DNA of 26,699 bases from Candidatus Bipolaricaulia bacterium (lineage in GTDB: Bacteria; Bipolaricaulota; Bipolaricaulia; JBHIAT01). The stretch spans positions 1-26,699 of the forward strand of contig JBHIAT010000032.1 in NCBI GenBank assembly GCA_046758705.1, written 5' to 3'. This document shows, in pieces, positions 2,926-24,883 of the stretch. A model generated the notes under the pieces. That model saw nothing but the letters and a program-made list of their open reading frames with translations. It had not been told where the DNA came from and searched no databases. Every line of letters starts with the position of its first letter. Position 1 is the first letter of the stretch. Position numbers and translations under genes: made by a program.

Positions 2926-4461
2926 TTGAAAAGTTGGCATTGGGGACTTGCGATCGTCTCAGGGGTGTTGACCGCGCTCGGTCTCCCCGGCCTGGGACTC
3001 GATCCGCTGATTTGGTTCTCGTTGGTCCCGCTGTTCTTCGCGTTGGAGCGGACCAGCACCAGATATCGGAGGAGTTTCCTGCTGGCCTACTTGACTGGGA
3101 TCGCGTTCTTCGGCGTCCTGTTCCATTGGTTCCTCGTCCTGAGGCAGTGGGAGGATTTGTTCCCCGTCCTCGGGATCTGGGGCGGTTACTTCATTGCCCT
3201 CCCCTATCTGGTGATAATCTTGCTGGCGAGCATCTATTGGGGAATCTGGGGGCTGATTTACTCGTTCTTCAACGCGCGGTTCGGGACCCTGGCGATGCTG
3301 CTCATGACCCCGGCCCTGTGGGTCTCCTTCGAGTTCATCCGCGCTCAGGGCGAGTTCGGTCTCACCTGGGGTGACCTGGGCTATGCCCTCTACCGGAGGG
3401 TGTCGCTGATCCAGCTTGCCTCAATCACCGGCGTCTGGGGGATCTCATTCGCGATCGTCTTGGTCAACTACCTGCTGTTTCTCGCCCTCAACCATTTGAG
3501 ATATCGGTACGTGTTGGTCGCCGGCGCGATCATTGGTCTGCTGTTCGGGGTCGGTCTGCCCCAGATGGACGATCGAACAACGGTGGACGTGGGGGGGATC
3601 GAGGTCGCCATCGTCCAACCGGGGATCTCCCGTTGGCAGCAGCTCAACGCTCAAGGTCCAGGGTCGCTGCTGGAAGACTATGGGGTGCTGCTCGACGGGT
3701 TGCGGCCCGTTGACTTGGTCGTCCTTCCCGAATCGTTTCTCCAGGATTACGTCCTCAAGCGGGCGGCGCTGATGCAACCGTTCCGGGCGTTCGCGATCGA
3801 GCGCTCGACTTACCTGGTCTTGGGAACGCACGACTATCGAGACGGGAAGCTCTACAACACCGTCGCACTGATCACTCCGGCAGGAGAGGTGGCCGGCGTC
3901 TATGACAAACGACATCTGGTGCCGTTTGGAGAGTACATCCCGTTCCGAAGGCTGTTGAGCCGGTTGGGGGTCGCCGACGAACTCCCCGTTGACTTCGATC
4001 GGGGGACCGACTACCGGCTGATCACCGCATCGCTGGGAACGATCGGGGCGCCCATTAGCTTCGAATCGACCTTCCCATCGATCAGTCGGACGTTCACCCG
4101 TCAGGGGGCCGAGCTGTTGATCAACGTCACCAACGACGTCTGGTACGGGGATAGCCCCGCCCCGACCCAGCAGTTCTCCAAGGCGGTGTTCCGGGCGGTT
4201 GAGAATCGGCGTTACCTGGTGCAAAGCTCCCACACCCGCATCTCCGGAATTATCGCCCCCGATGGGGAGATCCTGCACCGGTCCACCTCTAACGATCAGG
4301 AGATTCTCTACGGGACAGTGTCGCTACAGGATGAGCAGACGTTTTACACCCGCTACGGTGACTGGTTCGTTTATCTATTGGCCGCCTACCTGGTCGGTGC
4401 CATCGTCTGGTGGGGTGTGCCGAATGTGATGAAAACTCTGAAACGCCCAACTGAGAGGTGA
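2926..4461 (+). CDS. lnt: Apolipoprotein N-acyltransferase homologue with the catalytic Cys replaced by Ser
   Basis: N-terminal TM bundle, W-G-x-L-G-Y, IQLASITGVWGISF, nitrilase-fold LPES, YDKRHLVPFGEY, TND-W, FRAVEN and C-terminal TFYTRYGD. The usual IC(Y/F)E reads ISFE. TTG start with SD GGGGAGG. Confidence 0.9.
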   Translation: MKSWHWGLAIVSGVLTALGLPGLGLDPLIWFSLVPLFFALERTSTRYRRSFLLAYLTGIAFFGVLFHWFLVLRQWEDLFPVLGIWGGYFIALPYLVIILLASIYWGIWGLIYSFFNARFGTLAMLLMTPALWVSFEFIRAQGEFGLTWGDLGYALYRRVSLIQLASITGVWGISFAIVLVNYLLFLALNHLRYRYVLVAGAIIGLLFGVGLPQMDDRTTVDVGGIEVAIVQPGISRWQQLNAQGPGSLLEDYGVLLDGLRPVDLVVLPESFLQDYVLKRAALMQPFRAFAIERSTYLVLGTHDYRDGKLYNTVALITPAGEVAGVYDKRHLVPFGEYIPFRRLLSRLGVADELPVDFDRGTDYRLITASLGTIGAPISFESTFPSISRTFTRQGAELLINVTNDVWYGDSPAPTQQFSKAVFRAVENRRYLVQSSHTRISGIIAPDGEILHRSTSNDQEILYGTVSLQDEQTFYTRYGDWFVYLLAAYLVGAIVWWGVPNVMKTLKRPTER

Positions 4462-5027
4462 TCGGATTGAAACAAAAACACAGCACCAAACTGGGTCTGA
4501 CGAGACGGGGGCTCTTTAAGGCAACGGGCGCCGTCGTTCTGGGTGGGGTGCTGGCGTCGTTAACGAGTAGACCGGCAGTCGGTCAGGGGCGGGTGGACGT
4601 GCTGATGCTCACCACCAACAGTAGTCACTTCATGTTCGTCCCCACCGGTCTGTGGGTCGAGCCGGGGACGGTGGTTCGCTGGATTCAGGAAAGCGACTTC
4701 CACAGCGCCACCGCCTACCATCCCGACAACTTCGGCAAGGAGCTGAGGATCCCCGAGGGCGCGAAGTCCTGGGACTCCGGGGTGCTGATCGAGGTCGGTG
4801 CCACCTTCGAGCACCGGTTCGAGGTCGAGGGGGTCTACGACTACTACTGCATCCCCCACGAGTTCCTGGGAATGGTCGGTCGGATCATTGTCGGGGAGCC
4901 CAAGGGTGGCCCGGGGACGAAACCGTTGGAACAGGGCATCCCGCCCCAGGCTCAAAGTATGATGCCGTCGATCGAGGAGATCATGGCGCGCAAGGTGGTG
5001 TCGTTCCCCCCAGGAGTGGTGAGCTAA
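4458..5027 (+). CDS. Tat-exported plastocyanin/halocyanin-like type-1 blue copper protein
   Basis: Twin-arginine signal LTRRGLFK plus hydrophobic stretch; copper ligands H(SATAY) and YYC-IP-H-EFLG-M. GTG start overlaps the lnt stop codon (GTGA). Confidence 0.85.
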   Translation: MIGLKQKHSTKLGLTRRGLFKATGAVVLGGVLASLTSRPAVGQGRVDVLMLTTNSSHFMFVPTGLWVEPGTVVRWIQESDFHSATAYHPDNFGKELRIPEGAKSWDSGVLIEVGATFEHRFEVEGVYDYYCIPHEFLGMVGRIIVGEPKGGPGTKPLEQGIPPQAQSMMPSIEEIMARKVVSFPPGVVS

Positions 5028-5074
5028 GTCGGGATTTTCGTGATCCATCCAAGAGAGTCAGGTGTTGAAAAGCG

Positions 5075-6145
5075 TCACCGCTTCCATCGCGGGTCCAGCG
5101 CGTCACGCAGGCCGTCGCCCAGGAAGTTGAAGCAAAGCACGGTCAAGAAGATGAGCAGGCCGGGGAACAACGCAATGAAGATGCCATTGGGGTAGAAGAA
5201 GAACTCCTGGGCCCGGGAGAGCATGTTGCCCCAGGAGACTGCCGGCGGCTGGATACCTAATCCCAAAAACGAAAGCCCCGATTCAACCAGGATGGCCTCC
5301 CCCGTTTGCAGGGTGGCCTGGACGATGATGACGTGGGTGGCGTTGGGCAGGAGATGGCGAAACAGAACGCGAAACGATGAGCCACCAAGGGCGCGGGCGG
5401 CGTCGACAAACTCGCGTTCGCGCAGACTGAGCACCTCACCCCGGACGAGGCGGGTCGTGCTCATCCAGGAGAGGATAATAATGACGAAGATGATGATGGC
5501 AATGCTCTTGGACCCGCCCAGAACCTTGTTGAGGTAAGTGGTGAAGTTCCCTTGGGAGCTTGCCAGCAGGCCGCTCAGGATGAGCAGCAAAGGGAGTTGG
5601 GGAATGGAGAGCATGGTGTCAGTGAAGCGGCTGATGACGGAGTCCAGGCGACCGCCCATGTAGGCGGCGGTCGCCCCGAGTAGACTGCCGATAAACGTTG
5701 AGATCAAGGCAGCCACAAACCCGACCAACAGCGAAACTCGGCCGCCGTGGAGCACGCGTGTGAGAATGTCGCGGCCCAAATCATCGGTGCCGAACGGGTG
5801 TATCCCGCAGCGCCACAACAGCACGCGCGAACGCACGCACTTGTCGAGTGCTCTCGGACTCTCTATCACGTTTAAACTGGGCCCGCTGAAACTGAGCCGG
5901 CGGTTCTGACGGGAGAAATCATAAGGGGTCAGCCACGGGGCGAGAATGGCTAACAAGACTAAGGTCACGATCACGGTGGCACCCAAGATCGCCAGCCGGT
6001 GCCGCCGGAAGCGGCGCCAGACGAGCTTCCAAGTCGATTCGCCTCGCCGAACCGGTTCCTCGAGCTCCGGCTCCAGTTCCGGCGAGGGAGGCGTGGGGGT
6101 TCGGCGTCTGCGAACACGAACACGAACACGAAGGCGATCAATCAT
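5075..6145 (-). CDS. oppC: Peptide/nickel ABC transporter permease (OppC/DppC type)
   Basis: WRRFRRHRLA, HPFGTDDLGRD, EAA loop REFVDAARALG, ESGLSFLGLG and GDGLRDALDP. Confidence 0.92.
   Translation of the reverse strand: MIDRLRVRVRVRRRRTPTPPSPELEPELEEPVRRGESTWKLVWRRFRRHRLAILGATVIVTLVLLAILAPWLTPYDFSRQNRRLSFSGPSLNVIESPRALDKCVRSRVLLWRCGIHPFGTDDLGRDILTRVLHGGRVSLLVGFVAALISTFIGSLLGATAAYMGGRLDSVISRFTDTMLSIPQLPLLLILSGLLASSQGNFTTYLNKVLGGSKSIAIIIFVIIILSWMSTTRLVRGEVLSLREREFVDAARALGGSSFRVLFRHLLPNATHVIIVQATLQTGEAILVESGLSFLGLGIQPPAVSWGNMLSRAQEFFFYPNGIFIALFPGLLIFLTVLCFNFLGDGLRDALDPRWKR
6111..6132. repeat. Hexamer tandem repeat (CGAACA)x3.7 in the oppC 5' end
   Basis: cgaaca cgaaca cgaaca cgaa; encodes RVRVRVR on the minus strand. 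Confidence 0.8.
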
Positions 6146-7106
6146 ATCGGATACGCGGGTCGACGAGAGCGTAGACGATATCGGCTAACAGGTTGAAGAT
6201 CAGGATGAGCACGGAGATGAACATCAGTGAGACCATGGCCACGTTGAAGTCATTGACCAAGATCGACTCGTAGATGCCACGTCCCATACCGGGCCAGTTG
6301 AACACAGTCTCGGTGAGAATCGCGCCGGAGAACAGCAACGGGACGGCCAGGGCAATTAGAGTGATGATGGGAAGGATCGCGTTGCGCAGCGCGTGGCGGA
6401 AGATGACGATCCGTTCGGACAGGCCCTTGGCGCGGGCCGTTTGGATATAATCGAGGTGGATGACCTCGAGCATCGAGCTGCGCATGAAGCGTGTCCACTG
6501 GGCCATTTGCAAAGTGGACAGGGCTGTGACCGGCAGGATCAAGTGGCGAATCCGATCGACGATGGTCGGCCAGAGTCCCTCAATACCTGGGGTCTGCAAG
6601 CTTCCCGCCGGCAACCAGCGAAACACCACCGCGAAGAAGTAGATCAGCAAGATACCATACCAGAAGATAGGAATGGACACGCCGAAAAAGTTAAAGATGG
6701 TAATGCCGTAATCGGTCGGCGTGTGCTGGCGCAGGGCGGACACGATACCGGCAGGAATGGCAATCACGAAGGCGACGGCCAAAGAGACTCCGGAGAGCAG
6801 CAAGGTGTTGGGCAGGCGGTTCTGGAAGACGTACTGTGCGGCCGGCATACCGTATGTGCGCGACGGCCCAAAGTTCCCTTGGACGGCCTGTCTTAACCAG
6901 AACCAATAGCGAATATACCAGGGTTTGTCCAGACCATAGAGCTTGATGAGTCGGTTGTAGTCTTCTTGGGTGAACCCGGGGTTGCCGCGGCGCAGATCGT
7001 CAATCGGATCTCCAGGCTTGAGGGCCAGCAAAGCAAATACGATGGCGGAGATCACGAGCAGCGTCGGAATGAGCTGCAAAGTGCGACGGATCACATACGC
7101 GAACAT
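6138..7106 (-). CDS. oppB: Peptide/nickel ABC transporter permease (OppB/DppB type)
   Basis: YVIRR, PGDP, YGLDKP, DYIQTARAKGL, HALRNA, ETVFNWPGMG and DPRIRY. Confidence 0.93.
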   Translation of the reverse strand: MFAYVIRRTLQLIPTLLVISAIVFALLALKPGDPIDDLRRGNPGFTQEDYNRLIKLYGLDKPWYIRYWFWLRQAVQGNFGPSRTYGMPAAQYVFQNRLPNTLLLSGVSLAVAFVIAIPAGIVSALRQHTPTDYGITIFNFFGVSIPIFWYGILLIYFFAVVFRWLPAGSLQTPGIEGLWPTIVDRIRHLILPVTALSTLQMAQWTRFMRSSMLEVIHLDYIQTARAKGLSERIVIFRHALRNAILPIITLIALAVPLLFSGAILTETVFNWPGMGRGIYESILVNDFNVAMVSLMFISVLILIFNLLADIVYALVDPRIRYD

Positions 7107-7124
7107 AGCATTTCACGTTTATAG

Positions 7125-7169
7125 TATACATCACCGGGGGTGTGTCATCCCCACCCCCGGTGATGTGTA
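7125..7169. terminator. Long stem-loop between the solute-binding protein gene and oppB (mRNA stabiliser or partial terminator)
   Basis: TATACATCACCGGGGGTG-N9-CACCCCCGGTGATGTGTA: 18-bp stem with one mismatch. Confidence 0.7.
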
Positions 7170-7194
7170 TCGATGCGTCGCTCACGTTAGCGGA

Positions 7195-9099
7195 CTAGCG
7201 AACAGCGACAGCGCCGTTCTGCGCCCAGCCCCACTCCCACGCGTTCCAGAACTGGGTTCGAGCGACCGGCGTAATCTTGCTGAAGTTCACCAAGCCAGTC
7301 TTCTTGGTGACGACTTCGACGCGTTCATAAAGCGGGACCGTCGGCAGCTCGGTGGCGTAGATCTGCTGCAAGATCTTCACGATCTCCGCCCGCTTAGCGG
7401 GGTCGAACTCTCGGAGTGCTTGGGCACGCAGTTGGTCGAAGATCGGGTTGATCCAACCTGAAATGCCCACGCCCGAAAAGCCGTTGAGTGCTAAGGGAGT
7501 GTTCTCAGGTTCTGGGTCAACCGGGGCCTCCAACAGATCATTGGCCCACAGCTCGTTGGACAGGGGGTCCGCCGGGGCCTGACCGATGCCGCCGCCTTCA
7601 GCGTACTCTACGATCCCGCCCCAGGTGCACTCCGACTGGTGGTACAGAAATTCAGAGCTAAACACGACGCTCCCCGGCAGGTTCTGGACCTCCAACGCGA
7701 TGCCCACGTCGGCCAAGAACTCCTGCAGGATCTCTCCGGTGCGCACCCGGAACGACGCGGTGGTACTTACCCACGGCAGCCGAAACTCGACCACTCGTCC
7801 ACCATCGGTGGTGCGCTCGAGGACCCCGTTGTTGTCGGAGTCCGCCCAGCCAAGCTCAGCCAGCAACGCCTGCGCGGCATCGGGGTTGAACGGCCAGGTG
7901 GGCAGTGCCTCGTTGAACCCGACGTCGCCGCGAACGACGAACGAGTTGGAAACAATGGCTCCCGGGAAGACCGTCGATCCCAGATCCTCACGGTCGATTG
8001 CCTGAATGATCGCCTGGCGGGTCCGCGGGTCAGCGAGCTGGAGGTCATCCGCGATCCGACAGTCCACTTGACCAGGGAAGCGCCCATCCAGGCCGTTGTC
8101 GTCCTCGAACAGGTTGAAGTTGAGCTTCTCGATGAAGCCGGAGGGCGCGACCTCGACTTCGGCGCGGTTGCCCAATTGCCTGCGCAGGACCTCCGGTTCC
8201 AGGCCGGCCAAGCCGATGTCGTCAGAGGCGTCGATCTCCCCAGCGATGATGGCCGACAGCAGCGTCGGCTGGTTGACGATGAATCGCACGGTGATCTCCC
8301 GAACGTAGTTCCTGGCAGGGCCCGGCGGAGGCAGGAAGAAGTCAGAGCGGCGGCTCAGGCGGATGAATTGGTTGCGTTGCCACTCCTCGACCTTGAAGGG
8401 TCCGCTCCCGACCACCTTAGAGGGGTCCAGACCTGTGGCAGGATCAGCCCCCAGGAAGTCGCCGAGGGCCTGCTCAGGATTGGTACGAAGCTGACTGATC
8501 ACCTGGTTGACGATCGGCTCCCAGATGTGCTTGGGGGCGATGTCGTAGAAGCGCGTCAAACCGATGGATCCCCCGATGTTCGCGAAGAACAGGTTGGGCT
8601 GCTGGTAGACGATGGTGAAGCTCTTGCTCCTGGAGCCGCCTTTGCAGGTGACGCTGTTGATCAGGTTCGAAAACGCCCGGGTCGTCACCGGAAGGTCAGG
8701 TGTGTTCTGGACCTCGAAGGTAAACTCCGCGTCGGCACAGGTGATGGACCTGCCGTCCGACCAATTCGCGTTGGGCCGCAGCGTCCAATCGACCTCCTGG
8801 CGGACGAAGTTGCCGGCCGCATCTCGGATCACCCGCAGGCGGCCGTTGTCTGCTGAGGGCACTTCAGTGGCCAAGCCAGGTTGCAGGTTTCCATCGGAGT
8901 CAAAGTAGGTCAGCCCGATGAAGAACAAGCTCATCACGTTCTCTTTGGTATCGGCGGCACCCTCCCAGGGGTTCAAGTTGGACGGTTCCTGGGTGGTGCC
9001 GATGACCAGGTTGTTGGTTGTGGGGCCCGCGAAATTAGGAGCAGACCAAGCGGTGATAACTAACCCAACGAAGAGCAACAATGAAAGTGTTTTACGCAT
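7195..9099 (-). CDS. oppA: Family 5 ABC solute-binding protein (OppA/DppA type)
   Basis: Signal peptide, QEPSNLNP, LQPGLA, LRPNANWSDG, GSGPFK, RQAIIQAIDRE and LLAELGWADSDNNGVLE; strong SD AAGGAGG; lies upstream of oppBC. Confidence 0.9.
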   Translation of the reverse strand: MRKTLSLLLFVGLVITAWSAPNFAGPTTNNLVIGTTQEPSNLNPWEGAADTKENVMSLFFIGLTYFDSDGNLQPGLATEVPSADNGRLRVIRDAAGNFVRQEVDWTLRPNANWSDGRSITCADAEFTFEVQNTPDLPVTTRAFSNLINSVTCKGGSRSKSFTIVYQQPNLFFANIGGSIGLTRFYDIAPKHIWEPIVNQVISQLRTNPEQALGDFLGADPATGLDPSKVVGSGPFKVEEWQRNQFIRLSRRSDFFLPPPGPARNYVREITVRFIVNQPTLLSAIIAGEIDASDDIGLAGLEPEVLRRQLGNRAEVEVAPSGFIEKLNFNLFEDDNGLDGRFPGQVDCRIADDLQLADPRTRQAIIQAIDREDLGSTVFPGAIVSNSFVVRGDVGFNEALPTWPFNPDAAQALLAELGWADSDNNGVLERTTDGGRVVEFRLPWVSTTASFRVRTGEILQEFLADVGIALEVQNLPGSVVFSSEFLYHQSECTWGGIVEYAEGGGIGQAPADPLSNELWANDLLEAPVDPEPENTPLALNGFSGVGISGWINPIFDQLRAQALREFDPAKRAEIVKILQQIYATELPTVPLYERVEVVTKKTGLVNFSKITPVARTQFWNAWEWGWAQNGAVAVR

Positions 9100-9202
9100 G
9101 TCTCCCTCCTTATGGTTTTCTCATTGGATCTTTTGCAGTCTGTAAGTCTGTACACCACCCCCCTCTCTCTTTCCCGTGACCGCTGGCTTCAGCGGGGTAA
9201 AT

Positions 9203-9232
9203 ATTATACACTCAGTGATCAGTCGAAGTCAA
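9203..9232 (-). promoter_or_regulatory. Putative sigma70 promoter of the opp cluster
   Basis: Minus strand TTGACT-N18-TATAAT, followed by a small hairpin CCGCTG-N4-CAGCGG (9180-9195). Confidence 0.65.
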
Positions 9233-9257
9233 AATTTCAAAATGACGTGAAATCTAG

Positions 9258-10604: not shown

Positions 10605-11894
10605 CTACAACTCCTGCTCCTGTTCCTGTTTCTCTTCGATATCGGCTCCCAGGTGCCGAAGGTTATCGATGAACGCATGATAGCCCCGGTCGATATGGCC
10701 GTTGTCCTTGACGCGCGTCGTTCCGGAAGCGGCCAGACCGGCGAGAGCCAAAGCCGCGCCCGCGCGGATGTCGGGCGCCTCCACGATTGCCCCCTGGAGT
10801 TTTTCCACGCCGTTGATGATCGCCGTCGATCCGAAGACCTGGATGTTGGCCCCCATCCGGTTCAGCTCATCGGCATGGGAGAACCTGCGGTCGAAGACCG
10901 TCTCCTTCACCACGCTCTTCCCGTCGCAGACGGACAGCAATGTGACCATCGGCGCTTGAAGATCTGTGGGAAAACCGGGATAAGAGAGGGTCGCGATATC
11001 GGTGGCCTGCAGTCGCTGACGGCTCGTCTGTCTCACCCAAATCCCTCCTGCTTCATCGATGATCTCGACCCCCACCTCGCGAAGCTTCGACAGGACCGAG
11101 CTGAGGTGATTGGGACGGCAGCCGCTCACGTAGACCTCCCCGCCGGCGATCGCGGTGGCAATCATATAGGTGCCGGCCTCGATACGATCGGGGATAATGG
11201 TATGCTCGGCTCCGTGCAACCGTTCCACCCCCTCGATCCCGATCTGCGACGGTCGGATCTGGATCCGGGCGCCCATGGCGTTGAGAAACCGAGCCAGATC
11301 TGAGATCTCAGGCTCCGAGGCCGGGTTGCTGATCACCGTCCATCCCGGGGTGATCACGGCGGTCATGATGATATTCTCGGTAGCTCCCACCGACGGTTTG
11401 TCGAGATAGATCTCTGCGCCGCTCAGCTCGGGTGCAACCGCATGAACAAACCCCTCTGAGAGCTCCACCGTCGCCCCCAGGTTGCGCAGCCCCTTCAGAT
11501 GGAGATCGACCGGACGGGAGCCGATGTTGCACCCCCCGGGCAGGGCGACCCTGGCCTGCCCCAGTCGGGCGAGCAGCGGTCCCAAAACGAAGAATGACGC
11601 GCGCATGCGCTTGACCAACTGCGGAGGGACCTCTGGGTTGAGCGGTCCCCGGGATCGAATCACATACCGACCGCTTCCCCCCGCCCCGTCGTCGATCCGC
11701 TCAATCTCTTTCCCCAATTTCTGGAGCATCTCGACGATGGTGCGGACATCCCCAATATCCGGGATGTTGTTGAGAATCACCGGTTCATCGGTCAACAGGG
11801 AAGCGGTGATGATCGGTAACGCGGCGTTCTTGGCTCCGTTGACCATCACCGTCCCGTCTAGCTCCCCTGGGGCGTGGATGATAATGTTCTTCAT
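10605..11894 (-). CDS. murA: UDP-N-acetylglucosamine 1-carboxyvinyltransferase
   Basis: GAKNAALP, MRAS, LPGGCNIGSRPVDLH (catalytic Cys retained), SVGATEN, PDRIEAGT, YPGFPTDLQ and DIRAGA. ATG 11894 has SD GGGAGAG; alternative start at 11909. Confidence 0.97.
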   Translation of the reverse strand: MKNIIIHAPGELDGTVMVNGAKNAALPIITASLLTDEPVILNNIPDIGDVRTIVEMLQKLGKEIERIDDGAGGSGRYVIRSRGPLNPEVPPQLVKRMRASFFVLGPLLARLGQARVALPGGCNIGSRPVDLHLKGLRNLGATVELSEGFVHAVAPELSGAEIYLDKPSVGATENIIMTAVITPGWTVISNPASEPEISDLARFLNAMGARIQIRPSQIGIEGVERLHGAEHTIIPDRIEAGTYMIATAIAGGEVYVSGCRPNHLSSVLSKLREVGVEIIDEAGGIWVRQTSRQRLQATDIATLSYPGFPTDLQAPMVTLLSVCDGKSVVKETVFDRRFSHADELNRMGANIQVFGSTAIINGVEKLQGAIVEAPDIRAGAALALAGLAASGTTRVKDNGHIDRGYHAFIDNLRHLGADIEEKQEQEQEL

Positions 11895-11930
11895 CCCAAA
11901 CTCTCCCATGCGGGGCAGGAAACCGGAGCG

Positions 11931-13154
11931 TCAGGGTAGATACCGCCGCGGATCGACCGAGTTACCACGCCTGCGGATCTCGAAGTGGAGATGGTTACCG
12001 GTCGAGAATCCTGTGCTGCCCATCAGGCCGATCAGCTGCCCCTGCTCTATGAACTGGCCCGGATAGACGAGGATCGAGGAGAGATGGGCGTAGCGGCTCA
12101 CGAGTCTATCGCGGTGATCGATGGTCACCAGTTTTCCGTATCCACCCTTGAAGTCAGCATAGACCACCCGTCCCGCTCGTGCGGCATAGATCCTGTCTCC
12201 CTTATCCCCAGCGATATCGATCCCTTCGTGAAACTGCCGTTGTTCGGTGACTGGATTAGGACGCCAACCGTAGGGTGAGTTGATCAAGCCGAGGACAGGC
12301 CAGACGAACGTGGTGAGCTTCCCCTTGGAGAGCCGCAGGGCGTTCACCCGTGGGGAGAGGTCAGCATCAGGGATGAACAGTTCCTGGTTAGGATAGATCA
12401 GATCCTGATCCTTGATGTCGTTGGCCTTGATGATCTTGCCGATCGGGACGCTGTAGGTGTAGGAGATATCACTTAGCGTCTGGTCCCGTTTGACCTGATG
12501 TAGGACACCCCGTTGATTGGGGATCACCAGGATCTGGCCGGGGTAGAGGAGACTGACATTCGCGATCTCGTTGTTGCCCACGATGGTGTTGTAATCGACA
12601 CCGAGTCCATAAGCGATGCCCAGCAGCGTGTCCCCTTCCCGCACCCGGTAGCGGATGATCCGAACCTCACCCGGCCCCTGCTTATCTGATACACTTGGCC
12701 GTTCGACTGACCGTTCGGCCACAAACTCCGGTTCCAGGGCCTGTGTTCGTTCGATCTCGATCTTGATGGGGCCCCCCAACCCTGCCTCTGCCTCCACCTC
12801 CACCTCCGCTTCCGCCACCGTCTCCTGCTGTACGGCCGCTGCATCACCGTCGGCTTCAGACCCGGTCTCGACCTCCACGTTCACCGGTGGGAAGGGCAAG
12901 AGAGCGTCTTGAGGCTCGGGATCCGGTCCTTCCTGTTCCTGAGTCGGGGCGGGCACGGACGCCGTGCGCTCCTGCTCCTCTATCCCTCCCATCACTTTGA
13001 AGGAGATATGATACGGGGCGCGCATCGGCTTGACCAGCACCTGGGCCGGTTGGTCGACAGACCGGTTGAATCCGGCACCGAACCAATATCCCAGAATAGC
13101 TGCTGCCAGTATGAGGGCAAAGGTAACGAACATCTTCCCCTTCAAAATTGCCAA
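11931..13154 (-). CDS. LysM-repeat M23 family peptidoglycan DD-endopeptidase
   Basis: N-terminal TM, acidic/Pro linker, two LysM repeats (YRVREGDTL.., HQVKRDQTL..), intact M23 motifs HEGID, YAHL and HLHFE. The start may be ATG 13133. Confidence 0.9.
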   Translation of the reverse strand: MAILKGKMFVTFALILAAAILGYWFGAGFNRSVDQPAQVLVKPMRAPYHISFKVMGGIEEQERTASVPAPTQEQEGPDPEPQDALLPFPPVNVEVETGSEADGDAAAVQQETVAEAEVEVEAEAGLGGPIKIEIERTQALEPEFVAERSVERPSVSDKQGPGEVRIIRYRVREGDTLLGIAYGLGVDYNTIVGNNEIANVSLLYPGQILVIPNQRGVLHQVKRDQTLSDISYTYSVPIGKIIKANDIKDQDLIYPNQELFIPDADLSPRVNALRLSKGKLTTFVWPVLGLINSPYGWRPNPVTEQRQFHEGIDIAGDKGDRIYAARAGRVVYADFKGGYGKLVTIDHRDRLVSRYAHLSSILVYPGQFIEQGQLIGLMGSTGFSTGNHLHFEIRRRGNSVDPRRYLP

Positions 13155-14436: not shown

Positions 14437-14734
14437 GATATCTCACCTCATAAGGGTTTAAAGATACGGGTGCACGGTACAAAACCCGCCGTTCTTTGTT
14501 CTGCTCAGGTTGCTAGTTTGGTTATGGCTTAAAATGACCGTTTCCAGTTACAACAAACAATTAACGTTACTGTTATTCCCCTACGATCAGCTTTGAGAGC
14601 TGTCTGCGTCTCCATGACGTTCATACAGGTGGGTTCTAAGGTTAGAACTGCAATTGGAACACTCATAAGAGTAAGAGTAAAGAATTTGGGATAAATCAAA
14701 AAGCAAATTTAGTAAGGCCAGGTATTCAAAGGTT

Positions 14735-14763
14735 ATTATAGCATAGGACTGAGGCCAGGTCAA
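14735..14763 (-). promoter_or_regulatory. Near-consensus sigma70 promoter of rho, implying a ~290-nt 5' leader
   Basis: Minus strand TTGACC-N17-TATAAT with a TG extended -10. Confidence 0.75.
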
Positions 14764-14779
14764 GCTACCTCCGCCCCCC

Positions 14780-14980
14780 CTATCCGTGTAGATATCTCTC
14801 CATGCCGAACGGGAGGTAGGCTCTGGGCGGGCCCAGCACCGTCGCTCGAACGATCCCGTCCGCTGCCCAGCGCAACGTCATCCTGTGGACATGCCGCCCC
14901 GTTCCCGGGCGAACGGGCTGCGATTCCGGTTCCGGTTCCGGCTCTGGCTCTCGCTTCGGTTCCGGTCCGTTATTCACCAC
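14780..14980 (-). CDS. Small protein downstream of floA (YqfB-like position), PE-repeat N-terminus
   Basis: Overlaps the floA end by 11 nt with SD GGAGGTG; C-terminal [13 protein letters not shown] resembles the motif I recall from proteins encoded after floA. Confidence 0.6.
14924..14941. repeat. Hexamer tandem repeat (TTCCGG)x3 encoding PEPEPE
   Basis: ttccgg ttccgg ttccgg, followed by degenerate copies up to about 14965. Confidence 0.75.
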
Positions 14981-15962: not shown

Positions 15963-15986
15963 ATCACCCTCCTTCACTCCAACGTT

Positions 15987-17348: not shown

Positions 17349-17638
17349 AGATACCCTTTGGTCTTCCAATCTTCTATGGCCTGCTTATCGGATACGGGCA
17401 CCCGGACCCGCTTCTCCCAGAAGCCGCTGACCTTGATGAGCTCCACCGCCTCCACCGCCTTCCCATCGACGAAGGCGAGCGGGTGACCCTGCATGCAGGC
17501 TCCACCCTTCTCTTCATCCAGCTCAGCCATCGACCCGCAGAGCGGACAACGTACATCCACGATGACCGCGCCCTGTATGTCTCTCTTCTTGAGGTGGGTG
17601 ATCATCCACGCCCGTATCCGGTCCAGTCTCAAGGCCAT
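17345..17638 (-). CDS. Small hypothetical protein with a putative Zn-ribbon (CPLC..C-x3-H)
   Basis: 97 aa; overlaps both neighbours in the same orientation; CPLCG-x11-CMQGH. Confidence 0.65.
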   Translation of the reverse strand: MALRLDRIRAWMITHLKKRDIQGAVIVDVRCPLCGSMAELDEEKGGACMQGHPLAFVDGKAVEAVELIKVSGFWEKRVRVPVSDKQAIEDWKTKGYL

Positions 17639-17844
17639 CTTGGTCCACTCTCTTTCCTGCCGGCTCTTAAGAGCCGTCTGACAAGGCCTCTGAACCTATC
17701 CTTGTGTGAGCTGGATCTGACAACCATCCCGCCACATCTCGGACAGGAGAGGCTGTGTGAACCACTCCTGACGAATGCCTGATTATCCGAGCCCTCCCAC
17801 TCGCAACCGATGGAGGTACAGTGGACCTTTATGTCAGATCCCAT
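17629..17844 (-). CDS. Small hypothetical Zn-ribbon protein (C-x4-C..CPRC) with a basic tail
   Basis: 71 aa; CTSIGCEW..CPRCGG; overlaps the next gene by 10 nt. Confidence 0.6.
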   Translation of the reverse strand: MGSDIKVHCTSIGCEWEGSDNQAFVRSGSHSLSCPRCGGMVVRSSSHKDRFRGLVRRLLRAGRKESGPRWP

Positions 17845-18001
17845 CCTTTCACTTTAGGATCTATACCGAATAATTCCAACAGGGCAGGCCAGGTTAGGAT
17901 GGGATTAGGGGCAGGAATCACCCCGCCTCGATCCACTCGTCTCGTATCGTACGTAATCTATCCCTGCTATAAGCGTAAAGAAAACGCGGTTAATAATCAA
18001 A

Positions 18002-18033
18002 TTGCACAGGCGATCGCTTCTCATTACAATGAG
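18002..18033 (+). promoter_or_regulatory. Putative ilvD promoter with a palindrome over the -10 box
   Basis: TTGCAC-N17-TACAAT; CTCATT-AC-AATGAG at 18020-18033. Confidence 0.55.
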
Positions 18034-18079
18034 CGTAACTCAAGAGTCAAGCGCCCACCGAGACGAGGAGGAATCGACC

Positions 18080-19753: not shown

Positions 19754-19835
19754 AGGTTCGACCCGACCGCGTCAAGATGAGCCATTTTCCGACGACAGAA
19801 AAGTTGAGAAAAATTCAGGCGCTGCCCGGATCGCT

Positions 19836-21263
19836 ATGGCGCGTCTTCGGCCCACTAAAAGTCGTTACCCGCTTGTTGTCATCTGTCTCGCGTTCATCTC
19901 TGGCATCCTGCTCGCCGACCGGTTTTCTTTTAATCCGACCGCCCTCACCATCGCAACAGTCGTGCTGTTCATATCGGCCATCTTTCTCCATCTTTTCAGG
20001 TTCAGAGTAGAGATTCTTTTTGTTCTGCTGACCGTCGTCGCATTGGGGGTCGTGCGTCATGCGGTCTCCCAACTATCGTTCGAGACACTTTATGCCAGAT
20101 TGGAAAATCTGCGTACCATCACCGGAACCGTGATCGATTACCCGGCTCACGGTGGGGGACGGAGTCGCTTCATCCTTAAGCCTGAGGGAGAGCCGGGCGC
20201 CGTTCAGATCTTCTACGATCACGGACCCCAGGATTATCTCAGTGTGGGCTACGGGGATCGTTTGCGTCTCTCCGGGACATCCGAGGTCCCGTGGACGTCG
20301 GATGCGTTCGACTACCGGGCATACCTGCGCCATCGGGGGATCTGGGGGATCGTGCGGGTCAGGGAGATGGATGAAATAGAGCGGTTGGGTACGGGAGGGC
20401 ATCCGGTGTTGCGCTGGGGGTACCAAACCCGGGAGACGCTCTTCGGAGTCATCGATCGCTACGTCTCCAATCCCGAGGCCGGGTTGCTCAAGGCGATCCT
20501 GTTTGGCGAACGGGCGTACCTCGACCGGGAGATCGAAACCAGCTTCCAGCGTACCGGCCTGGCACACATCCTGGCCGTCTCCGGGCTGCACCTCGGGATC
20601 ATCATCGGGATCCTATGGTGGGGGCTCAAACGGTTGCGCTGGTCGGAGGCCCGGATTTACCTCATCCTGCTTCCCATCGTGTTGATCTATCTGATCATCG
20701 TGGGTTTTCGGGTGAGCCTGGTGCGCGCGACGGTCCTGTTCGGATTCATGGGGCTCGGCTGGGTGCTGGCCGAGCTTGGCCTGATCCTGAAGCGGTGGCG
20801 GAATCTGTATCAGGCGCTGGCCGCGGCTGCCCTGATCCTGCTGATGGTGAACCCAGGAGCACTCTTCGACGTCGGCTTCCAGCTGAGCTTCGCCGCCACT
20901 CTGGCCATCATCGCCTGTACACCGACCTTCGAGGCGATATTGCAACGGCTGGGGGTTCAGTTTTTCAGATCCCTACTTGCCGTCTCGATCGCCGCACAGC
21001 TCGGCGTCGCCCCGATCATCGCCTACCACTTCCATCAGGTTTATCTGGTCATCATCCTGGCGAACCTGATCGTCATCCCGTTGACCGCGGTCGCACTGTT
21101 CGGAGGAATTGGAGTGTTGGTCTTCGGTAGCCTGGGGGTTCCAGGGATCGCCCCCGCGATCGGGCTGTTGGAAAGTTGGGCGTTGAAGGCACTGGCCGGG
21201 GCGGCCGGGTTATTCGCCGGGTTGCCGTTCGCGTATTTTGATTTGACTTGTTTATGTATCTAA
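19836..21263 (+). CDS. comEC: ComEC/Rec2 competence protein (DUF4131/OB plus competence domain, no C-terminal metallo-beta-lactamase domain)
   Basis: FDYRAYL, TGLAHILAVSGLH, SLVRA, NP-x2-LFDVGFQLSF and LANL; the ORF ends right after the TM domain. Confidence 0.88.
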   Translation: MARLRPTKSRYPLVVICLAFISGILLADRFSFNPTALTIATVVLFISAIFLHLFRFRVEILFVLLTVVALGVVRHAVSQLSFETLYARLENLRTITGTVIDYPAHGGGRSRFILKPEGEPGAVQIFYDHGPQDYLSVGYGDRLRLSGTSEVPWTSDAFDYRAYLRHRGIWGIVRVREMDEIERLGTGGHPVLRWGYQTRETLFGVIDRYVSNPEAGLLKAILFGERAYLDREIETSFQRTGLAHILAVSGLHLGIIIGILWWGLKRLRWSEARIYLILLPIVLIYLIIVGFRVSLVRATVLFGFMGLGWVLAELGLILKRWRNLYQALAAAALILLMVNPGALFDVGFQLSFAATLAIIACTPTFEAILQRLGVQFFRSLLAVSIAAQLGVAPIIAYHFHQVYLVIILANLIVIPLTAVALFGGIGVLVFGSLGVPGIAPAIGLLESWALKALAGAAGLFAGLPFAYFDLTCLCI

Positions 21264-21271
21264 TCTATAAT
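21243..21271 (+). promoter_or_regulatory. Near-consensus sigma70 promoter overlapping the comEC stop
   Basis: TTGACT-N17-TATAAT, ending 13 nt before ATG 21285. Confidence 0.7.
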
Positions 21272-21284
21272 CACTGAAAATCAC

Positions 21285-22496
21285 ATGGCTGAGACGGAAA
21301 CCAGAGCGCGGACGCAGAGAGATGGGCGAGGTCTTGGAATTCGACTCCCATTCAGGATTTTCGGCATCCCCATCGAGCTTCACTTCACGTTTCTCATCTT
21401 CATCCCGGTCCTCGCCTGGATCATCAGCCGGCAGTTGGACTTTTATGCCAGCCTGTTCATCCTCGATCTCGACATCAATGCGCTTGAGACAGGCGTGCCG
21501 TCGCCGTTCGTCCTCGGGTTGATCGCCGCGATTGGCCTGTTCGTCGGGGTGTTCCTTCACGAGCTCGGCCACTCCTGGGTGGCGATCCGTTATGGGATCC
21601 AGATCCGAAAAATTACGCTCATGATCCTCGGCGGATTGGCCTATATGGAACGGATGCCCAGGGAACCGAGGCAGGAGGCATGGGTAGCGATCGCCGGGCC
21701 GATCGTGAGTTTTGCGCTTGGAGGAATTGGAATTGCAGTTCTGTTAGCCATTCCTGACGCGTCCCCCCAAGCTCAGTTCATCGTCGGATACCTCGGCTAC
21801 ACCAACCTGTTCCTCGGCCTGTTCAATCTGATCCCGGCGATCCCGATGGACGGCGGCCGGGTGCTGCGCGCGTTCCTGGCCCGTTCTCGACCCTACGCCG
21901 ACGCGACCCGGACCGCCGTGGCCGTCAGTCGGTCCCTGGCGATCTTGATGGGACTGTTCGGATTGTTGCAGTTTAACCTGTTCCTGATGTTCATCGCGTT
22001 CTTCATCTATGCTGCCTCCGGCCAGGAGATGCAGCAGTCCGAACTGAGCCAGTTGCTCAAAGATGTCCGGGTCAAGGACCTCATGGTCAGGCAAGTCGAC
22101 ACCGTTCCTTCAGATATGCCTGTTTCAGAGCTGTTTCAGCTCATGCTGGAAAAACGACATATCGGCTACCCGGTCGTCGATCGCGAGGATCGCTTGGTGG
22201 GCATCATTACCCTCCGCGACCTCCAGCAGGTGGACGGTGCTGGGACGAATCGTCTCGTCGAGGAGATCATGACGCCGGCCTCGGAGATCGTCACCATCGG
22301 CGAGGAGGAGTGTACCATCGATGCGTTGGAGAAGCTCACCCGGAATAATCTCGGGCGATTGGTGGTCATCAACAGCATCGACGAGATGGTCGGTATCCTC
22401 AGCCGGACTGATCTGGTCCGGGCGTTGCAGATCTTGAGGCTTCGGGGCACGCTGTTCCAGGCCTTAGGTGAAAAACCGGGGTATGGATCGGGATAA
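21285..22496 (+). CDS. Site-2 protease (M50) with a C-terminal CBS pair
   Basis: HELGH, IAGPIVS and FNLIPAIPMDGGR; tandem CBS domains (VKDLMVR..GYPVVD..GIIT; VEEIMT..GILSRTD). Confidence 0.93.
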   Translation: MAETETRARTQRDGRGLGIRLPFRIFGIPIELHFTFLIFIPVLAWIISRQLDFYASLFILDLDINALETGVPSPFVLGLIAAIGLFVGVFLHELGHSWVAIRYGIQIRKITLMILGGLAYMERMPREPRQEAWVAIAGPIVSFALGGIGIAVLLAIPDASPQAQFIVGYLGYTNLFLGLFNLIPAIPMDGGRVLRAFLARSRPYADATRTAVAVSRSLAILMGLFGLLQFNLFLMFIAFFIYAASGQEMQQSELSQLLKDVRVKDLMVRQVDTVPSDMPVSELFQLMLEKRHIGYPVVDREDRLVGIITLRDLQQVDGAGTNRLVEEIMTPASEIVTIGEEECTIDALEKLTRNNLGRLVVINSIDEMVGILSRTDLVRALQILRLRGTLFQALGEKPGYGSG

Positions 22497-22528
22497 GGCG
22501 TTCCACAGAAGCCTATCAAGGGGGTAGG

Positions 22529-22714
22529 ATGGCCGTCGAGGATCTTGCCGAAGGGATAGCCGCCAGTGACACACTGATCGCCGTCTGGTACGACGATGAG
22601 GCGGGCGAGGTCTTGGTGCAGTATGGGTATGTCAGCATCAGCCTGCCGCCCGAGGACTTTTCCGACCTGATCGAACTGCTGCTCAAGGCGGAGGAACGGC
22701 TGGAGCGGTTATAA
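22529..22714 (+). CDS. Small acidic hypothetical protein
   Basis: 61 aa; SD GGGGTAGG; fills the gap up to the convergent gene; protein-like composition. Confidence 0.6.
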   Translation: MAVEDLAEGIAASDTLIAVWYDDEAGEVLVQYGYVSISLPPEDFSDLIELLLKAEERLERL

Positions 22715-22722
22715 GTTCGGTT

Positions 22723-23763
22723 TCAGTTCGTCGATGATCCCGATCCGCCACCCTCCGATCGGGAGATCTCGATCCCAAACTGATCCAGTAGAAACTCCAC
22801 AATCAACAGTTGCTTGGCTACCCGCGCTTCAAGCGTCTCCCTGAGATCGGTCTCGACGGTGAACGCCAGCGCCGGCTCGGGAAGCTCATAATGAGCGGCC
22901 CAGGTGACGTCGGTCGGGATCGGGGTCTCGTCGATGGTGACCAAACTCAGATCTGCATCGATCAGCTGCCGATTCAACGTATCGAGGATGCCGTCGAGGG
23001 CCTCCCGTGAATCGGGGTCGTCGACGCTGATCATCGACGGGTAGTGATAGGCTGACTCATGCAGATCGATCAAAAGGTCGATCTGAAGATAGCGTCTCTG
23101 TCCGTCGGGAAAGATTCCCAACATCAGCCGAAAGATGTTCTCCCCAGCCTGTCGGATGTTTGGGTCGAGCGCTCGGCGGTAGCCTTCCGGGTCGAGCAGC
23201 TCCGCGACGGTATCAGCGTAGCGCACCGACCTGGAAAACAGACCCGCCTCATAGAGCGCCTGATCGCCGGTCATCCACCACCAGATCCCGCGCTCGCCGA
23301 CGAACTGGTCGAGGATGAACCGATCTCTTCCGGCGATCGGACGCCGCGCCGGAAATGCCCGGCCCAGGTTGTAATAGTGATTGGGGAACGGCCCATGAGA
23401 GGATCGGGTGCCTTGTTGGTAAGCGACCGGGTTTTGAATCGGCAGGATCACCAGCACACCGCGATCGACTTGGTACGCTTCGACCAGTTGTTGCAATGCG
23501 TGAACGCTGGCGGGCTCATCCCCGTGCATCCCCGCCAGCACCAGCGCCACCTTCCCCTCCCGGTCACCCCACTTAACCACCACCTCGGTGGCGTATCCCT
23601 CGATCTCCTCGGAGAGGAGCATCCGCTCCTCCATCCTGCGCACGGTAGAGGAAGGGGAAGGGGAAACCATCAGCCCCACCAGCACGATCAGGAATAGGAA
23701 CAGAAGCCGGACCAGGGTTCCCATCCATCGATTTCTATGCCAGGTTGCAGTTGACCGTGTCAC
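22723..23763 (-). CDS. Exported/membrane-anchored M14-like zinc peptidase (succinylglutamate desuccinylase/aspartoacylase superfamily)
   Basis: N-terminal TM, AGMHGDE, LPIQNP, NLGRAFP, IDLHES and FTVET. Confidence 0.78.
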   Translation of the reverse strand: MTRSTATWHRNRWMGTLVRLLFLFLIVLVGLMVSPSPSSTVRRMEERMLLSEEIEGYATEVVVKWGDREGKVALVLAGMHGDEPASVHALQQLVEAYQVDRGVLVILPIQNPVAYQQGTRSSHGPFPNHYYNLGRAFPARRPIAGRDRFILDQFVGERGIWWWMTGDQALYEAGLFSRSVRYADTVAELLDPEGYRRALDPNIRQAGENIFRLMLGIFPDGQRRYLQIDLLIDLHESAYHYPSMISVDDPDSREALDGILDTLNRQLIDADLSLVTIDETPIPTDVTWAAHYELPEPALAFTVETDLRETLEARVAKQLLIVEFLLDQFGIEISRSEGGGSGSSTN

Positions 23764-23776
23764 TTTGCCTCATTAA

Positions 23777-23859
23777 ATCATACCACAGAGCCCGATTGGA
23801 CTCAACTGTCCTTCGACTCTATCCGCACCTTGACGGGGATCCGATCGACACGCTATATT
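23777..23859. promoter_or_regulatory. Back-to-back divergent promoters
   Basis: Minus strand TTGAGT-N17-TATGAT with TG (23777-23805); plus strand TTGACG-N18-TATATT (23830-23859). Confidence 0.55.
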
Positions 23860-23881
23860 TAAGATAACAAAGCGAGGCAAA

Positions 23882-24883
23882 ATGCAAAATCCCTTGACCC
23901 TGTCGTTACGATCACTTCCTGTATTACTCTGTCTCTGTATCCTATGGACGCTATCTATCCATTCTCTCGCCTTCGGTGCTGAAGCCGGTGACCTGGTGAC
24001 CCTGTGGATGTTTCGCCCCGATGGTGCCCGATTCGCCTTCGCCGAGGAGAAGGCCAGCCCACTGATTCGTGGGTTCATTCCACCCTCCGCCAGCGTCCTG
24101 TCCCTCAAGCTGATCAATCCGGAGGGGAAGGTCCGAAATCTGACGGATATCATGCATCTCACCTCACTGGGGTACATCTACGGGAACGTCCCGGTAGAGG
24201 CGTTCGACGAACAGGGCCGCTACACGCTGAGGTTGCGGGTCGAGATCGGAGACGAGCTGGTGGAACGGTCCGCCGACTTCTTCATCCTGGATGGCGAGCT
24301 ACCCGAGGCAAAGGTCATCCAGGTCCAATATCTCTGGCCTTACCTCTACCGGGTCCGGAACGGGGATACCGTCTACAAGATCGCCACCATGTTCGTCACC
24401 GATGAGCGCTCGATAGAGGTCATCAACCACATCGATCGGGATGTGATCGAAGTGGGTCAAGTTCTCCAGCTGGGGCGATTGATCTATGATCCCCAAGGGT
24501 ACCGGATCGTGATCGACAAGCAGGGGAAGCAACTGCACATCTATCTGGACGGCGTCCGTCTGAAAAGCTATCCGGTGACGATCGGAGCCACCGGTTATAA
24601 CAGTCCAACGGTCACCTTCTGGATCGTTCAAAAACAGGAGAACCCCACGCTCTACTGGGAGGGCTCGGTCATCCCTTCTCCCAACGCTCTGGGACCCCGG
24701 TGGCTACAGTTCTTCAACCATCAATACGGGACACAGTTCGACCTCCACGGGACCAACAAACCGTGGAGCATCGGCCGACAGTTCTCTCACGGCTCCATCC
24801 GGATGTTCAACGACGATGTGGTGGAACTCTATCGGATCGTTCCGATCGGCACGATCGTAGAGATCGCCAATGACCTTTTCTGA
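23882..24883 (+). CDS. LysM plus YkuD L,D-transpeptidase-family protein with the catalytic Cys replaced by Ser
   Basis: Signal peptide, beta-rich N-terminal domain, LysM (YRVRNGDTVYKIA), YkuD motifs KSYPVTIG, NALGPRW and HGTNKPWSIG..SHGSIRM (canonical SHGCIRM). Confidence 0.88.
   Translation: MQNPLTLSLRSLPVLLCLCILWTLSIHSLAFGAEAGDLVTLWMFRPDGARFAFAEEKASPLIRGFIPPSASVLSLKLINPEGKVRNLTDIMHLTSLGYIYGNVPVEAFDEQGRYTLRLRVEIGDELVERSADFFILDGELPEAKVIQVQYLWPYLYRVRNGDTVYKIATMFVTDERSIEVINHIDRDVIEVGQVLQLGRLIYDPQGYRIVIDKQGKQLHIYLDGVRLKSYPVTIGATGYNSPTVTFWIVQKQENPTLYWEGSVIPSPNALGPRWLQFFNHQYGTQFDLHGTNKPWSIGRQFSHGSIRMFNDDVVELYRIVPIGTIVEIANDLF

Follow-up and report, generated by a model that had tools for sequence, protein, structure and literature searches.

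Background

Apolipoprotein N-acyltransferase (Lnt) and the L,D-transpeptidases are drug targets for which a thiol nucleophile is taught to be obligatory, and lnt originally entered the literature as cutE, a gene for copper tolerance. Here we describe a stretch of 26,699 nucleotides from a Candidatus Bipolaricaulia bacterium (assembly GCA_046758705.1, contig JBHIAT010000032.1, positions 1 to 26,699 of the forward strand; "the window" below is this whole stretch), in which an lnt gene and a gene for a LysM- and YkuD-domain protein of the L,D-transpeptidase type each encode serine at the position of the nucleophile cysteine. The same exchange has been made in the laboratory in both families. The C387S variant of Escherichia coli Lnt forms an oxygen-ester acyl intermediate but does not transfer the acyl chain to lipoprotein (PMC6828757), and His425, which lies beside Cys387, has been proposed to make that cysteine more nucleophilic and to stabilize the oxyanion (PMC5500888). 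The C354S variant of Mycobacterium tuberculosis LdtMt2 yields neither a transpeptidase product nor a carbapenem adduct (PMC11410929). Natural Lnt homologues with serine are on record in mycobacteria (BCG_2279c and Rv2262c/2261c), and BCG_2279c did not compensate for the loss of Lnt (PMC3850990). Copper is said to inhibit L,D-transpeptidases via their cysteine thiols (PMC6593411, citing Peters 2018), and the Bipolaricaulota are treated as atypical diderms like the Thermotogae (bioRxiv 10.1101/2021.05.31.446380; PMC6092417). A limited literature search found no natural serine-type YkuD protein and no serine-type Lnt in Bipolaricaulota, which is a weak negative.

The window corresponds to contig C32 in a genome bin of 3.7 Mb (G000; 319 contigs, 93.9% complete, 4.7% contaminated) and is ordinary chromosome. 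The composition of C32, like that of C6, the contig that carries the YkuD paralogue described below, is typical of the bin, and the best relatives of the window Lnt carry the source labels Candidatus Bipolaricaulia or Bipolaricaulota. Coordinates of all features are collected in Table 1.

The window lnt and its serine codon

The lnt product has an N-terminal polytopic membrane domain (LNT_N, PF20154, residues 12 to 183, 105.2 bits against a cut-off of 27.1) and a nitrilase-fold domain (CN_hydrolase, PF00795, residues 259 to 471, 113 bits against a cut-off of 23.2). It matches E. coli Lnt chains of the Protein Data Bank (PDB) at 1.4e-34 over residues 46 to 490, and its top-scoring chain is 5vrh, which is itself the E. 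coli C387S mutant. In the HMMER alignment, the ISFE of the window Lnt lies against the AICYE of E. coli, in which the cysteine is Cys387. A reading made earlier from the letters alone (the sequence-only reading) had placed serine at this position in Lnt and at the SHGC position of the L,D-transpeptidase, with both frames and the other catalytic residues intact, and all of this is borne out: the codons are AGC (Ser378) and TCC (Ser305), both open reading frames (ORFs) are open, Glu269, Lys328, Glu336, and Glu380 (the equivalent of E. coli Glu389) are present in Lnt, and His289 and Arg307 are present in the YkuD domain. A shift of the nucleophile to another cysteine is ruled out; the window Lnt has no cysteine, and the catalytic domains of the serine-bearing members of its clade contain no cysteine elsewhere.

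Both serines are genuine, inherited, and old. Logan contigs of three sequencing runs (X1 to X3) show 0 differences from the window over positions 2926 to 4613, the lnt codon region to which this comparison was confined, at depths of 8 to 13; the runs belong to one study, are labeled hydrothermal vent metagenome, and are possibly the source samples, so that their agreement excludes only an assembler slip. A further run with a small share (X4) has a variant contig over positions 3950 to 4427 with 6 differences, of which only the best-supported were listed, and we draw no conclusion from it on codon 378. The exact window Lnt protein is on record from both NCBI and Logan, as is the exact 333-residue LysM-YkuD protein, the latter on 3 contigs.

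Distribution and signature of serine-type Lnt

Among 214 distinct database homologues of Lnt, the nucleophile position is cysteine in 205, serine in 8, and arginine in 1. Lnt was found (E ≤ 1e-30) in 143 of 184 genomes of the phylum, and the nucleophile was read at 57 places in them (the best-scoring 48 and nine partial ones), 55 of which have cysteine and 2 serine, namely, the window's and that of a second genome, G113. Weak Lnt matches in families f6 and f9 look like plain CN-hydrolases.

One clade, which branches among cysteine-type Lnt of the Bipolaricaulota kind, holds serine in the window Lnt, P0007, P0012, P0015 (the G113 protein), P0016, P0022, and P0286 and arginine in P0021, so that serine is kept in 7 of 8 members that are 48 to 85% identical to P0016. 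A quick IQ-TREE search gave an SH-aLRT value of 99 for the clade without the window Lnt (six members) and of 84 with it (branch length, 0.84); P0286 is outside this tree and was assigned by its 85% identity. In a search with the clade profile, members scored 778 to 925 bits and all other proteins at most 668 bits. All 7 aligned clade rows are changed at each of four signature positions (N233x, P273x, C378S, and A435S), at which 113 cysteine-type rows are 79%, 96%, 100%, and 95% conserved, respectively, and the window Lnt has G233, Q273, S378, and S435 there. The glutamate, the lysine, and two further active-site glutamates (E259, K319, E327, and E375 in P0016 numbering) are invariant in the clade. 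Six of the seven serine members have no other periplasmic cysteine, and the arginine-bearing P0021 has one.

The serine codon is AGC in all three clade genes for which DNA is available (those of the window, of G113, and of L077, the contig that encodes P0016), as expected from a single TGC-to-AGC event. A mixture of TCN and AGY codons in the same family, which the sequence-only reading had proposed as a mark of selection, was thus not found in lnt, nor in the two ykuD genes (TCC and TCG), and the AGC uniformity makes this test uninformative. A second, isolated origin of serine-type Lnt is represented, as judged from its sequence, by P0376 (37% identical to P0016; JGI source), which has serine in ISYE and lacks the clade signature. 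Two other residues were considered as marks of the serine type. The equivalent of Trp237 was rejected, tryptophan being present in only 63 of the 113 cysteine-type rows, and Tyr407 is weakly informative, since it occurs in 8 of 8 serine types and also in 51 of 205 cysteine types. When genome contigs were searched with P0016, the matches were 19 Streptomyces loci only, at 30 to 34% identity and all with cysteine; three Streptomyces genomes have two Lnt paralogues each, and the four of these six that were read all have cysteine, so that these searches yielded no serine-type Lnt from Actinobacteria. The metagenome search with P0016 returned its own contig, a truncated relative (L078), and one weak match.

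Copy number, inheritance, and gene neighborhood of serine-type lnt

G000 and G113 (88% complete) have one LNT_N match each, and both encode the lipoprotein pathway partners Lgt and LspA (in G000, PF01790 at 2.6e-81 and PF01252 at 1.1e-37). The serine-type protein is the sole Lnt in both genomes that carry it. With regard to cysteine-bearing paralogues, which had been proposed as a check, G000 has the single LNT_N match, and the second YkuD-domain protein of the bin also has serine.

In a FastTree phylogeny of 46 genome-derived Lnt proteins (two partial rows were dropped), each of the families f3, f4, f5, and f8 stays together, and all but one of the seven f7 rows are joined in a clade (support, 97). 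The G113 protein, also of f7, falls outside that clade and beside those of G000 (f1) and of the cysteine-type f2 genome G001, in a weak group (87). Judged by this tree, serine-type lnt does not follow family taxonomy.

The gene neighborhoods differ between the two types. In the window, lnt is flanked by a DUF3105 gene and by a gene for a cupredoxin, a blue-copper protein, whose start overlaps the lnt stop by 4 nucleotides (GTGA), as had been noted at the outset. In G113, the genes on one strand are DUF420, DsbD_TM, thioredoxin-like, lnt, multicopper oxidase, and an HMA P-type ATPase of the CopA type. In L077, they are thioredoxin-like, ResB, ResC-like, DUF420, and lnt, followed by two DOMON proteins. 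Among 46 cysteine-type lnt loci, for which 124 flanking ORFs within ~1.5 kb of each side were counted by hand, a PKD/PD40 neighbor is present at 37, lgt at at least 16 (a lower bound owing to the choice of ORFs), DsbD_TM at 2, and a copper family at 0. Copper neighbors are thus present at 2 of 3 serine-type loci versus 0 of 46 cysteine-type loci (one-sided Fisher P = 0.0026, for three loci and for kin that are not independent), and the copper link suspected from the window has gained one independent case in G113. The N-terminal half of lnt from the clade relative L078, which ends before the catalytic part, lies directly behind lgt, and no lnt remnant is present among the ORFs scanned at the lgt loci of G000 and G113. 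Serine-type lnt has left the lgt and PKD/PD40 neighborhood for copper genes and haem and thiol-redox maturation genes.

Two observations concern the neighbors themselves. At the cysteine-type loci (L005 to L052), the PKD/PD40 neighbor of lnt is a secreted beta-propeller protein (TolB-like), often with lgt on the opposite side. DOMON proteins were found beside lipoprotein-pathway genes twice: on contig C38 of G113 (L105), where a second lgt is accompanied by a DOMON gene and a cytochrome b gene, and at positions 8505 to 9916 of L077, after lnt.

The LysM-YkuD protein and its paralogue

The YkuD domain (PF03734) of the LysM-YkuD protein (P0002) spans residues 207 to 328 and scores 68.5 bits against a cut-off of 23.4. 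A hydrophobic N-terminal leader is visible in the translation, and the LysM domain would fit export to the cell wall; the only cysteines of the protein, residues 17 and 19, are in the putative signal peptide. In an alignment to PDB chains, the SHGSIRM of P0002 lies against the SKGCIRM of Bacillus subtilis YkuD. P0002 keeps S302-H303-G304 and R307, the arginine after the nucleophile, which is invariant in alignment A3. The nucleophile is cysteine in 149 of 149 of the nearest YkuD domains (the best 150 of 7,387 matches) and in 8 of 8 matches from a word-based search.

The second YkuD-domain protein of G000, on C6, has 429 residues, a YkuD domain, and two PKD domains. It contains no cysteine, has serine (TCG) at the aligned nucleophile position, and lacks both the catalytic histidine and the arginine. 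BLASTP pairs the FDLHGT and SHGSIRM of P0002 with FDLEGE and TYGSIGL of the paralogue at 25% identity overall. Since the two proteins share the rare aspartate as well as the serine, the serine predates the duplication; MAFFT sets the first motif two columns off, so the shared aspartate is less sure than the shared serine. No YkuD match was found in the other 183 genomes of the phylum, and with a match in 1 of 184 (G000 only), the fold is either private to this lineage or acquired. To judge by its residues, the C6 paralogue has certainly lost transpeptidation. P0002 has probably lost it too, and it may be a peptidoglycan-binding protein that is weakened or no transpeptidase at all, or, at most, a hydrolase working through serine.

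Function of serine-type Lnt

We favor, with a probability of about 0.45, the reading that serine-type Lnt is a working, serine-acylated variant. Selection appears to act in the clade on a function that continues to depend on the Glu-Lys-Glu residues. In the proposed mechanism, phospholipid would acylate the enzyme on serine to give an O-acyl enzyme, which would probably still pass the acyl chain on, possibly with help from the signature changes and perhaps from high temperature. A serine nucleophile would be an advantage wherever copper or oxidants put free thiols of the periplasm at risk. For the window copy, activity is less certain than for the clade as a whole.

Several points weigh against this reading. 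The laboratory C387S variant of E. coli Lnt cannot transfer the acyl chain and serves as an inactive control (PMC6828757, PMC5500888), serine-type BCG_2279c did not replace Lnt in Mycobacterium bovis BCG (PMC3850990), and LdtMt2 C354S is without product (PMC11410929). The window Lnt lacks the His425 equivalent (Gln416) and an invariant glycine (Arg438), and this copy may therefore be less active than the clade, or differently active; it departs, these two residues included, at 6 of 46 positions at which at least 90% of cysteine-type proteins agree, compared with a median of 1 and a 95th percentile of 3.4. P0002 departs, besides its serine, at two near-invariant glycines (G244V and G287D, each glycine in 148 of 149 relatives). 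Within the clade, P0021 has arginine at the nucleophile position and has lost one glutamate, and monophyly with the window Lnt included has the SH-aLRT value of 84 from a quick tree. In the genome-only tree, the group with both serine rows (87) also holds cysteine-type G001, and branching within it is weak. Only three serine-type neighborhoods were readable. Finally, Lnt was not found at E ≤ 1e-30 in 41 of the 184 phylum genomes, including all of f6 (0 of 19) and f9 (0 of 4), so N-acylation may be dispensable in parts of the phylum.

The inactivity of the laboratory Cys-to-Ser mutants of both families, the failure of BCG_2279c to substitute for Lnt, the two lost residues of the window Lnt, the two further glycines changed in P0002, and the loss of histidine and arginine from the C6 paralogue would all be expected if both proteins were pseudoenzymes whose folds are catalytically inactive and persist as scaffolds that bind lipid or peptidoglycan. 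We regard this explanation as doubtful. A dead site is expected to drift, whereas Glu-Lys-Glu is invariant and serine is present in 7 of 8 clade members across 48 to 85% identity to P0016, and the four-position signature resembles remodeling rather than decay. Moreover, the serine-type protein is the sole Lnt of genomes that keep Lgt and LspA, and P0002 keeps His289, SHG, and Arg307.

The sequence-only reading had proposed that exposed envelope thiols may have been replaced by serine in this lineage. Part of this stands, in that the serines are genuine and old and that the Lnt serine is conserved in its clade with the rest of the triad kept, but a purge within a single lineage does not. Serine-type lnt is present in G113, which has no YkuD protein, it does not follow taxonomy, and YkuD is found in 1 of 184 genomes, so the two substitutions were separate events. 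A membrane protein of G000 with a transglutaminase-core domain, which may face outward as in TgpA of Pseudomonas, keeps its Cys-His-Asp, with the cysteine in GYCEYF, and the cupredoxins keep their cysteine ligands. With separate histories and the transglutaminase cysteine retained, there was no lineage-wide purge of envelope thiols, and any cause common to the two events would have to be convergent selection.

Such convergent adaptation, in which copper or oxidants at a vent independently selected oxygen nucleophiles in Lnt and YkuD proteins, is in our judgment unlikely. It would accord with the copper-protein genes directly beside 2 of 3 serine-type lnt genes and 0 of 46 cysteine-type ones, with the reported inhibition of L,D-transpeptidases by copper through the cysteine thiol (PMC6593411, citing Peters 2018), with the vent label of the runs that contain this DNA, and with the absence of cysteine from the window Lnt, mature P0002, and the C6 paralogue. 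However, the absence of YkuD from G113 and the kept transglutaminase cysteine speak against it here as well, nothing copper-related adjoins ykuD, and NlpC/P60, sortase, and Peptidase_C39_2 proteins were not found in G000, so there are no further families to compare. The exported proteins of G000 are poor in cysteine (0.52% versus 1.10%; cysteine-free, 42.5% versus 13.2%), with even counts in 121 proteins and odd counts in 74, figures that come from a crude home-made predictor applied to G000 alone. We judged this depletion to be unspecific to G000, as the excess of even counts points to ordinary disulfide use. Cysteine-poor exported proteins with even cysteine counts are the usual pattern of disulfide-forming bacteria.

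A more far-reaching version of the preferred reading would make serine-type Lnt a horizontally mobile, copper- and oxidant-proof isoenzyme that completes N-acylation via O-acyl-serine and moves together with genes for copper and haem maturation, and that together with the serine-type YkuD pair shows repeated thiol-to-serine conversion in uncultured bacteria; taken as a whole, this would be surprising, and we put it forward as speculation. It is improbable that serine-type Lnt has instead changed its reaction, either by stopping after the first half-reaction (as a phospholipase A1 or lysophospholipid generator) or by using another acceptor linked to the neighboring redox proteins. Such a change would fit the E. 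coli C387S variant, which performs step 1 only, the move of the gene from the lgt neighborhood into cytochrome c and copper maturation clusters, and signature changes at positions that are conserved in cysteine-type relatives. Yet neither G000 nor G113 has a second, cysteine-type Lnt for the normal job, the truncated gene of the clade relative L078 is still directly behind lgt, and the other acceptor has no direct support. Sequencing or assembly errors or very recent neutral drift, to which the sequence-only reading had given some weight and for which it may be said that AGC and TCC are each one base from TGC and that the X4 variant contig was not read at the lnt codon, are contradicted by the exact agreement of three runs, by the recurrence of AGC serine in G113 and L077 and of serine in seven clade proteins, and by a YkuD serine shared with a paralogue of only 25% identity, and we dismiss them.

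Other features of the window

The window begins with genes for a family-4 glycosyltransferase (putatively MraY-like), a DNA polymerase III delta-type subunit, the DUF3105 protein, Lnt, and the cupredoxin. An Opp-type ABC transporter, a GTPase (putatively HflX-like, from its domains), MurA, an M23/LysM peptidase, Rho, FloA, and NfeD follow, and the stretch ends with IlvD, ComEC, an M50 protease, an AstE/AspA-like protein, the LysM-YkuD protein, a Rad52/22-family protein, and RuvX.

Table 1. Positions of the genes and codons discussed, numbered from the first letter of the window
Feature	Position	Strand	Evidence or remark
DUF3105 membrane protein, directly upstream of lnt	2121..2831	+	Pfam DUF3105 1.5e-27, translation
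lnt, serine-type apolipoprotein N-acyltransferase homologue, 511 residues, zero Cys	2926..4461	+	Pfam LNT_N 4.9e-30, CN_hydrolase 2e-32
Glu269 (GAA), E. coli Glu267 equivalent, kept	3730..3732	+	Invariant column, alignment A1
Gln273 (CAG), clade signature position	3742..3744	+	Pro in 96% of cysteine-type relatives
Lys328 (AAA), E. coli Lys335 equivalent, kept	3907..3909	+	E. coli alignment, A1
Glu336 (GAG), E. coli Glu343 equivalent, kept	3931..3933	+	E. coli alignment, A1
Ser378 (AGC), nucleophile position (E. coli Cys387)	4057..4059	+	HMMER alignment
Gln416 (CAG), position of E. coli His425, beside the nucleophile	4171..4173	+	His in the other 119 sequences of A1
Ser435 (TCC), clade signature position	4228..4230	+	Ala in 95% of cysteine-type relatives
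Arg438 (CGC), position of E. coli Gly447	4237..4239	+	Gly in the other 119 sequences of A1; Gly invariant in A5 too
Cupredoxin (plastocyanin/azurin family), twin-arginine-like signal	4458..5027	+	Pfam Copper-bind 3.6e-10, translation
murA, cytoplasmic control	10605..11909	-	Alignment to solved MurA
Cys127 (TGC) of MurA, kept	11529..11531	-	Alignment to solved MurA
LysM-YkuD protein (P0002), putatively secreted, 333 residues	23882..24883	+	Pfam LysM 3.2e-9, YkuD 1.2e-18
Asp287 (GAC)	24740..24742	+	Gly in 148/149 relatives; also in the C6 paralogue by BLASTP
His289 (CAC), catalytic His of the HGT motif, kept	24746..24748	+	Invariant column, A3
Ser305 (TCC), nucleophile position of SHG[C]IR	24794..24796	+

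MurA had been named as a cytoplasmic enzyme that keeps its cysteine, and it does: its LPGGCNIGSRP aligns with the LPGGCAIGSRP of a solved MurA. The DUF3105 protein is odd for an envelope protein, having an N-terminal C-x2-C...H-x5-H zinc-finger-like stretch, a basic linker, a membrane helix, and the DUF3105 domain, and a literature search for DUF3105 returned no title that appeared relevant. The window cupredoxin has paralogues in G000 on C63 (78% identity) and C146 (48%), and the bin has at least 3 cupredoxin paralogues with their cysteine ligands kept; the neighbors on C63 and C146 are mostly without a Pfam match and are uninformative. In the Logan contigs, a second sequence type of similar depth covers part of the cupredoxin gene (4477 to 4863).

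An M23 peptidase gene with two LysM domains (11931 to 13154, minus strand) directly adjoins murA, which accords with peptidoglycan machinery of the ordinary kind. The AstE/AspA-type gene, of the zinc deacylase fold (22723 to 23763, minus strand), is divergent from the LysM-YkuD gene with 118 bp between them, and the two may form a peptidoglycan-peptide processing pair. The gene for a Rad52/Rad22-family single-strand annealing protein (25397 to 26158, plus strand), a family whose genes are often of phage origin, adjoins RuvX and overlaps unannotated ORFs on the opposite strand. Two intergenic stretches, at 14437 to 14969 (~530 bases, upstream of rho) and at 17370 to 18001 (~630 bases, between nfeD and ilvD), contain no ORF of at least 100 codons.

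Comparison with known systems

If serine-type Lnt is indeed a sole, selected, and copper-linked enzyme, it would be direct material on whether the thioester is chemically required, it might explain the long-known copper phenotype of cutE, and it would caution against the ordinary Lnt or Ldt label that annotation pipelines give to such proteins. If the folds are dead instead, they would be clean examples of envelope pseudoenzymes. Novelty is limited, because mycobacteria already provide recorded serine-type Lnt homologues, none of which has a known activity.

The closest characterized systems for the window Lnt are the enzymes of E. coli and Pseudomonas aeruginosa (CutE; PDB 5N6H, 5N6M, and 8B0K), with which it shares the LNT_N and CN_hydrolase build, the equivalents of Glu267, Lys335, Glu343, and Glu389, and a genome that has Lgt and LspA. 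It differs from them by serine for Cys387, glutamine for His425, arginine for Gly447, and a cupredoxin gene rather than lgt beside it. The E. coli C387S mutant (PDB 5VRH) has the same residue at the nucleophile position, but the natural clade adds three signature substitutions that have been kept over deep divergence. The mycobacterial BCG_2279c and Rv2262c-Rv2261c proteins are, like the window Lnt, natural homologues with serine for Cys387, reported without a known function (PMC3850990). By published description, BCG_2279c is an extra paralogue beside a working cysteine-type Lnt in another phylum, whereas the window protein is the sole Lnt of its genome.

P0002 has the same order of LysM and YkuD domains as B. 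subtilis YkuD (PDB 1Y7M and 2MTZ), which it matches over residues 155 to 328 at an E value of 3e-17, and it keeps the histidine of HGT, the glycine of SxG, and the IR that follows the nucleophile. It differs by serine for cysteine, by G244V and G287D, and by an added N-terminal region of ~120 residues without a Pfam match. With M. tuberculosis LdtMt2 C354S it shares serine in SHGC; the LdtMt2 form is a laboratory mutant, whereas P0002 is a natural protein known from its sequence alone.

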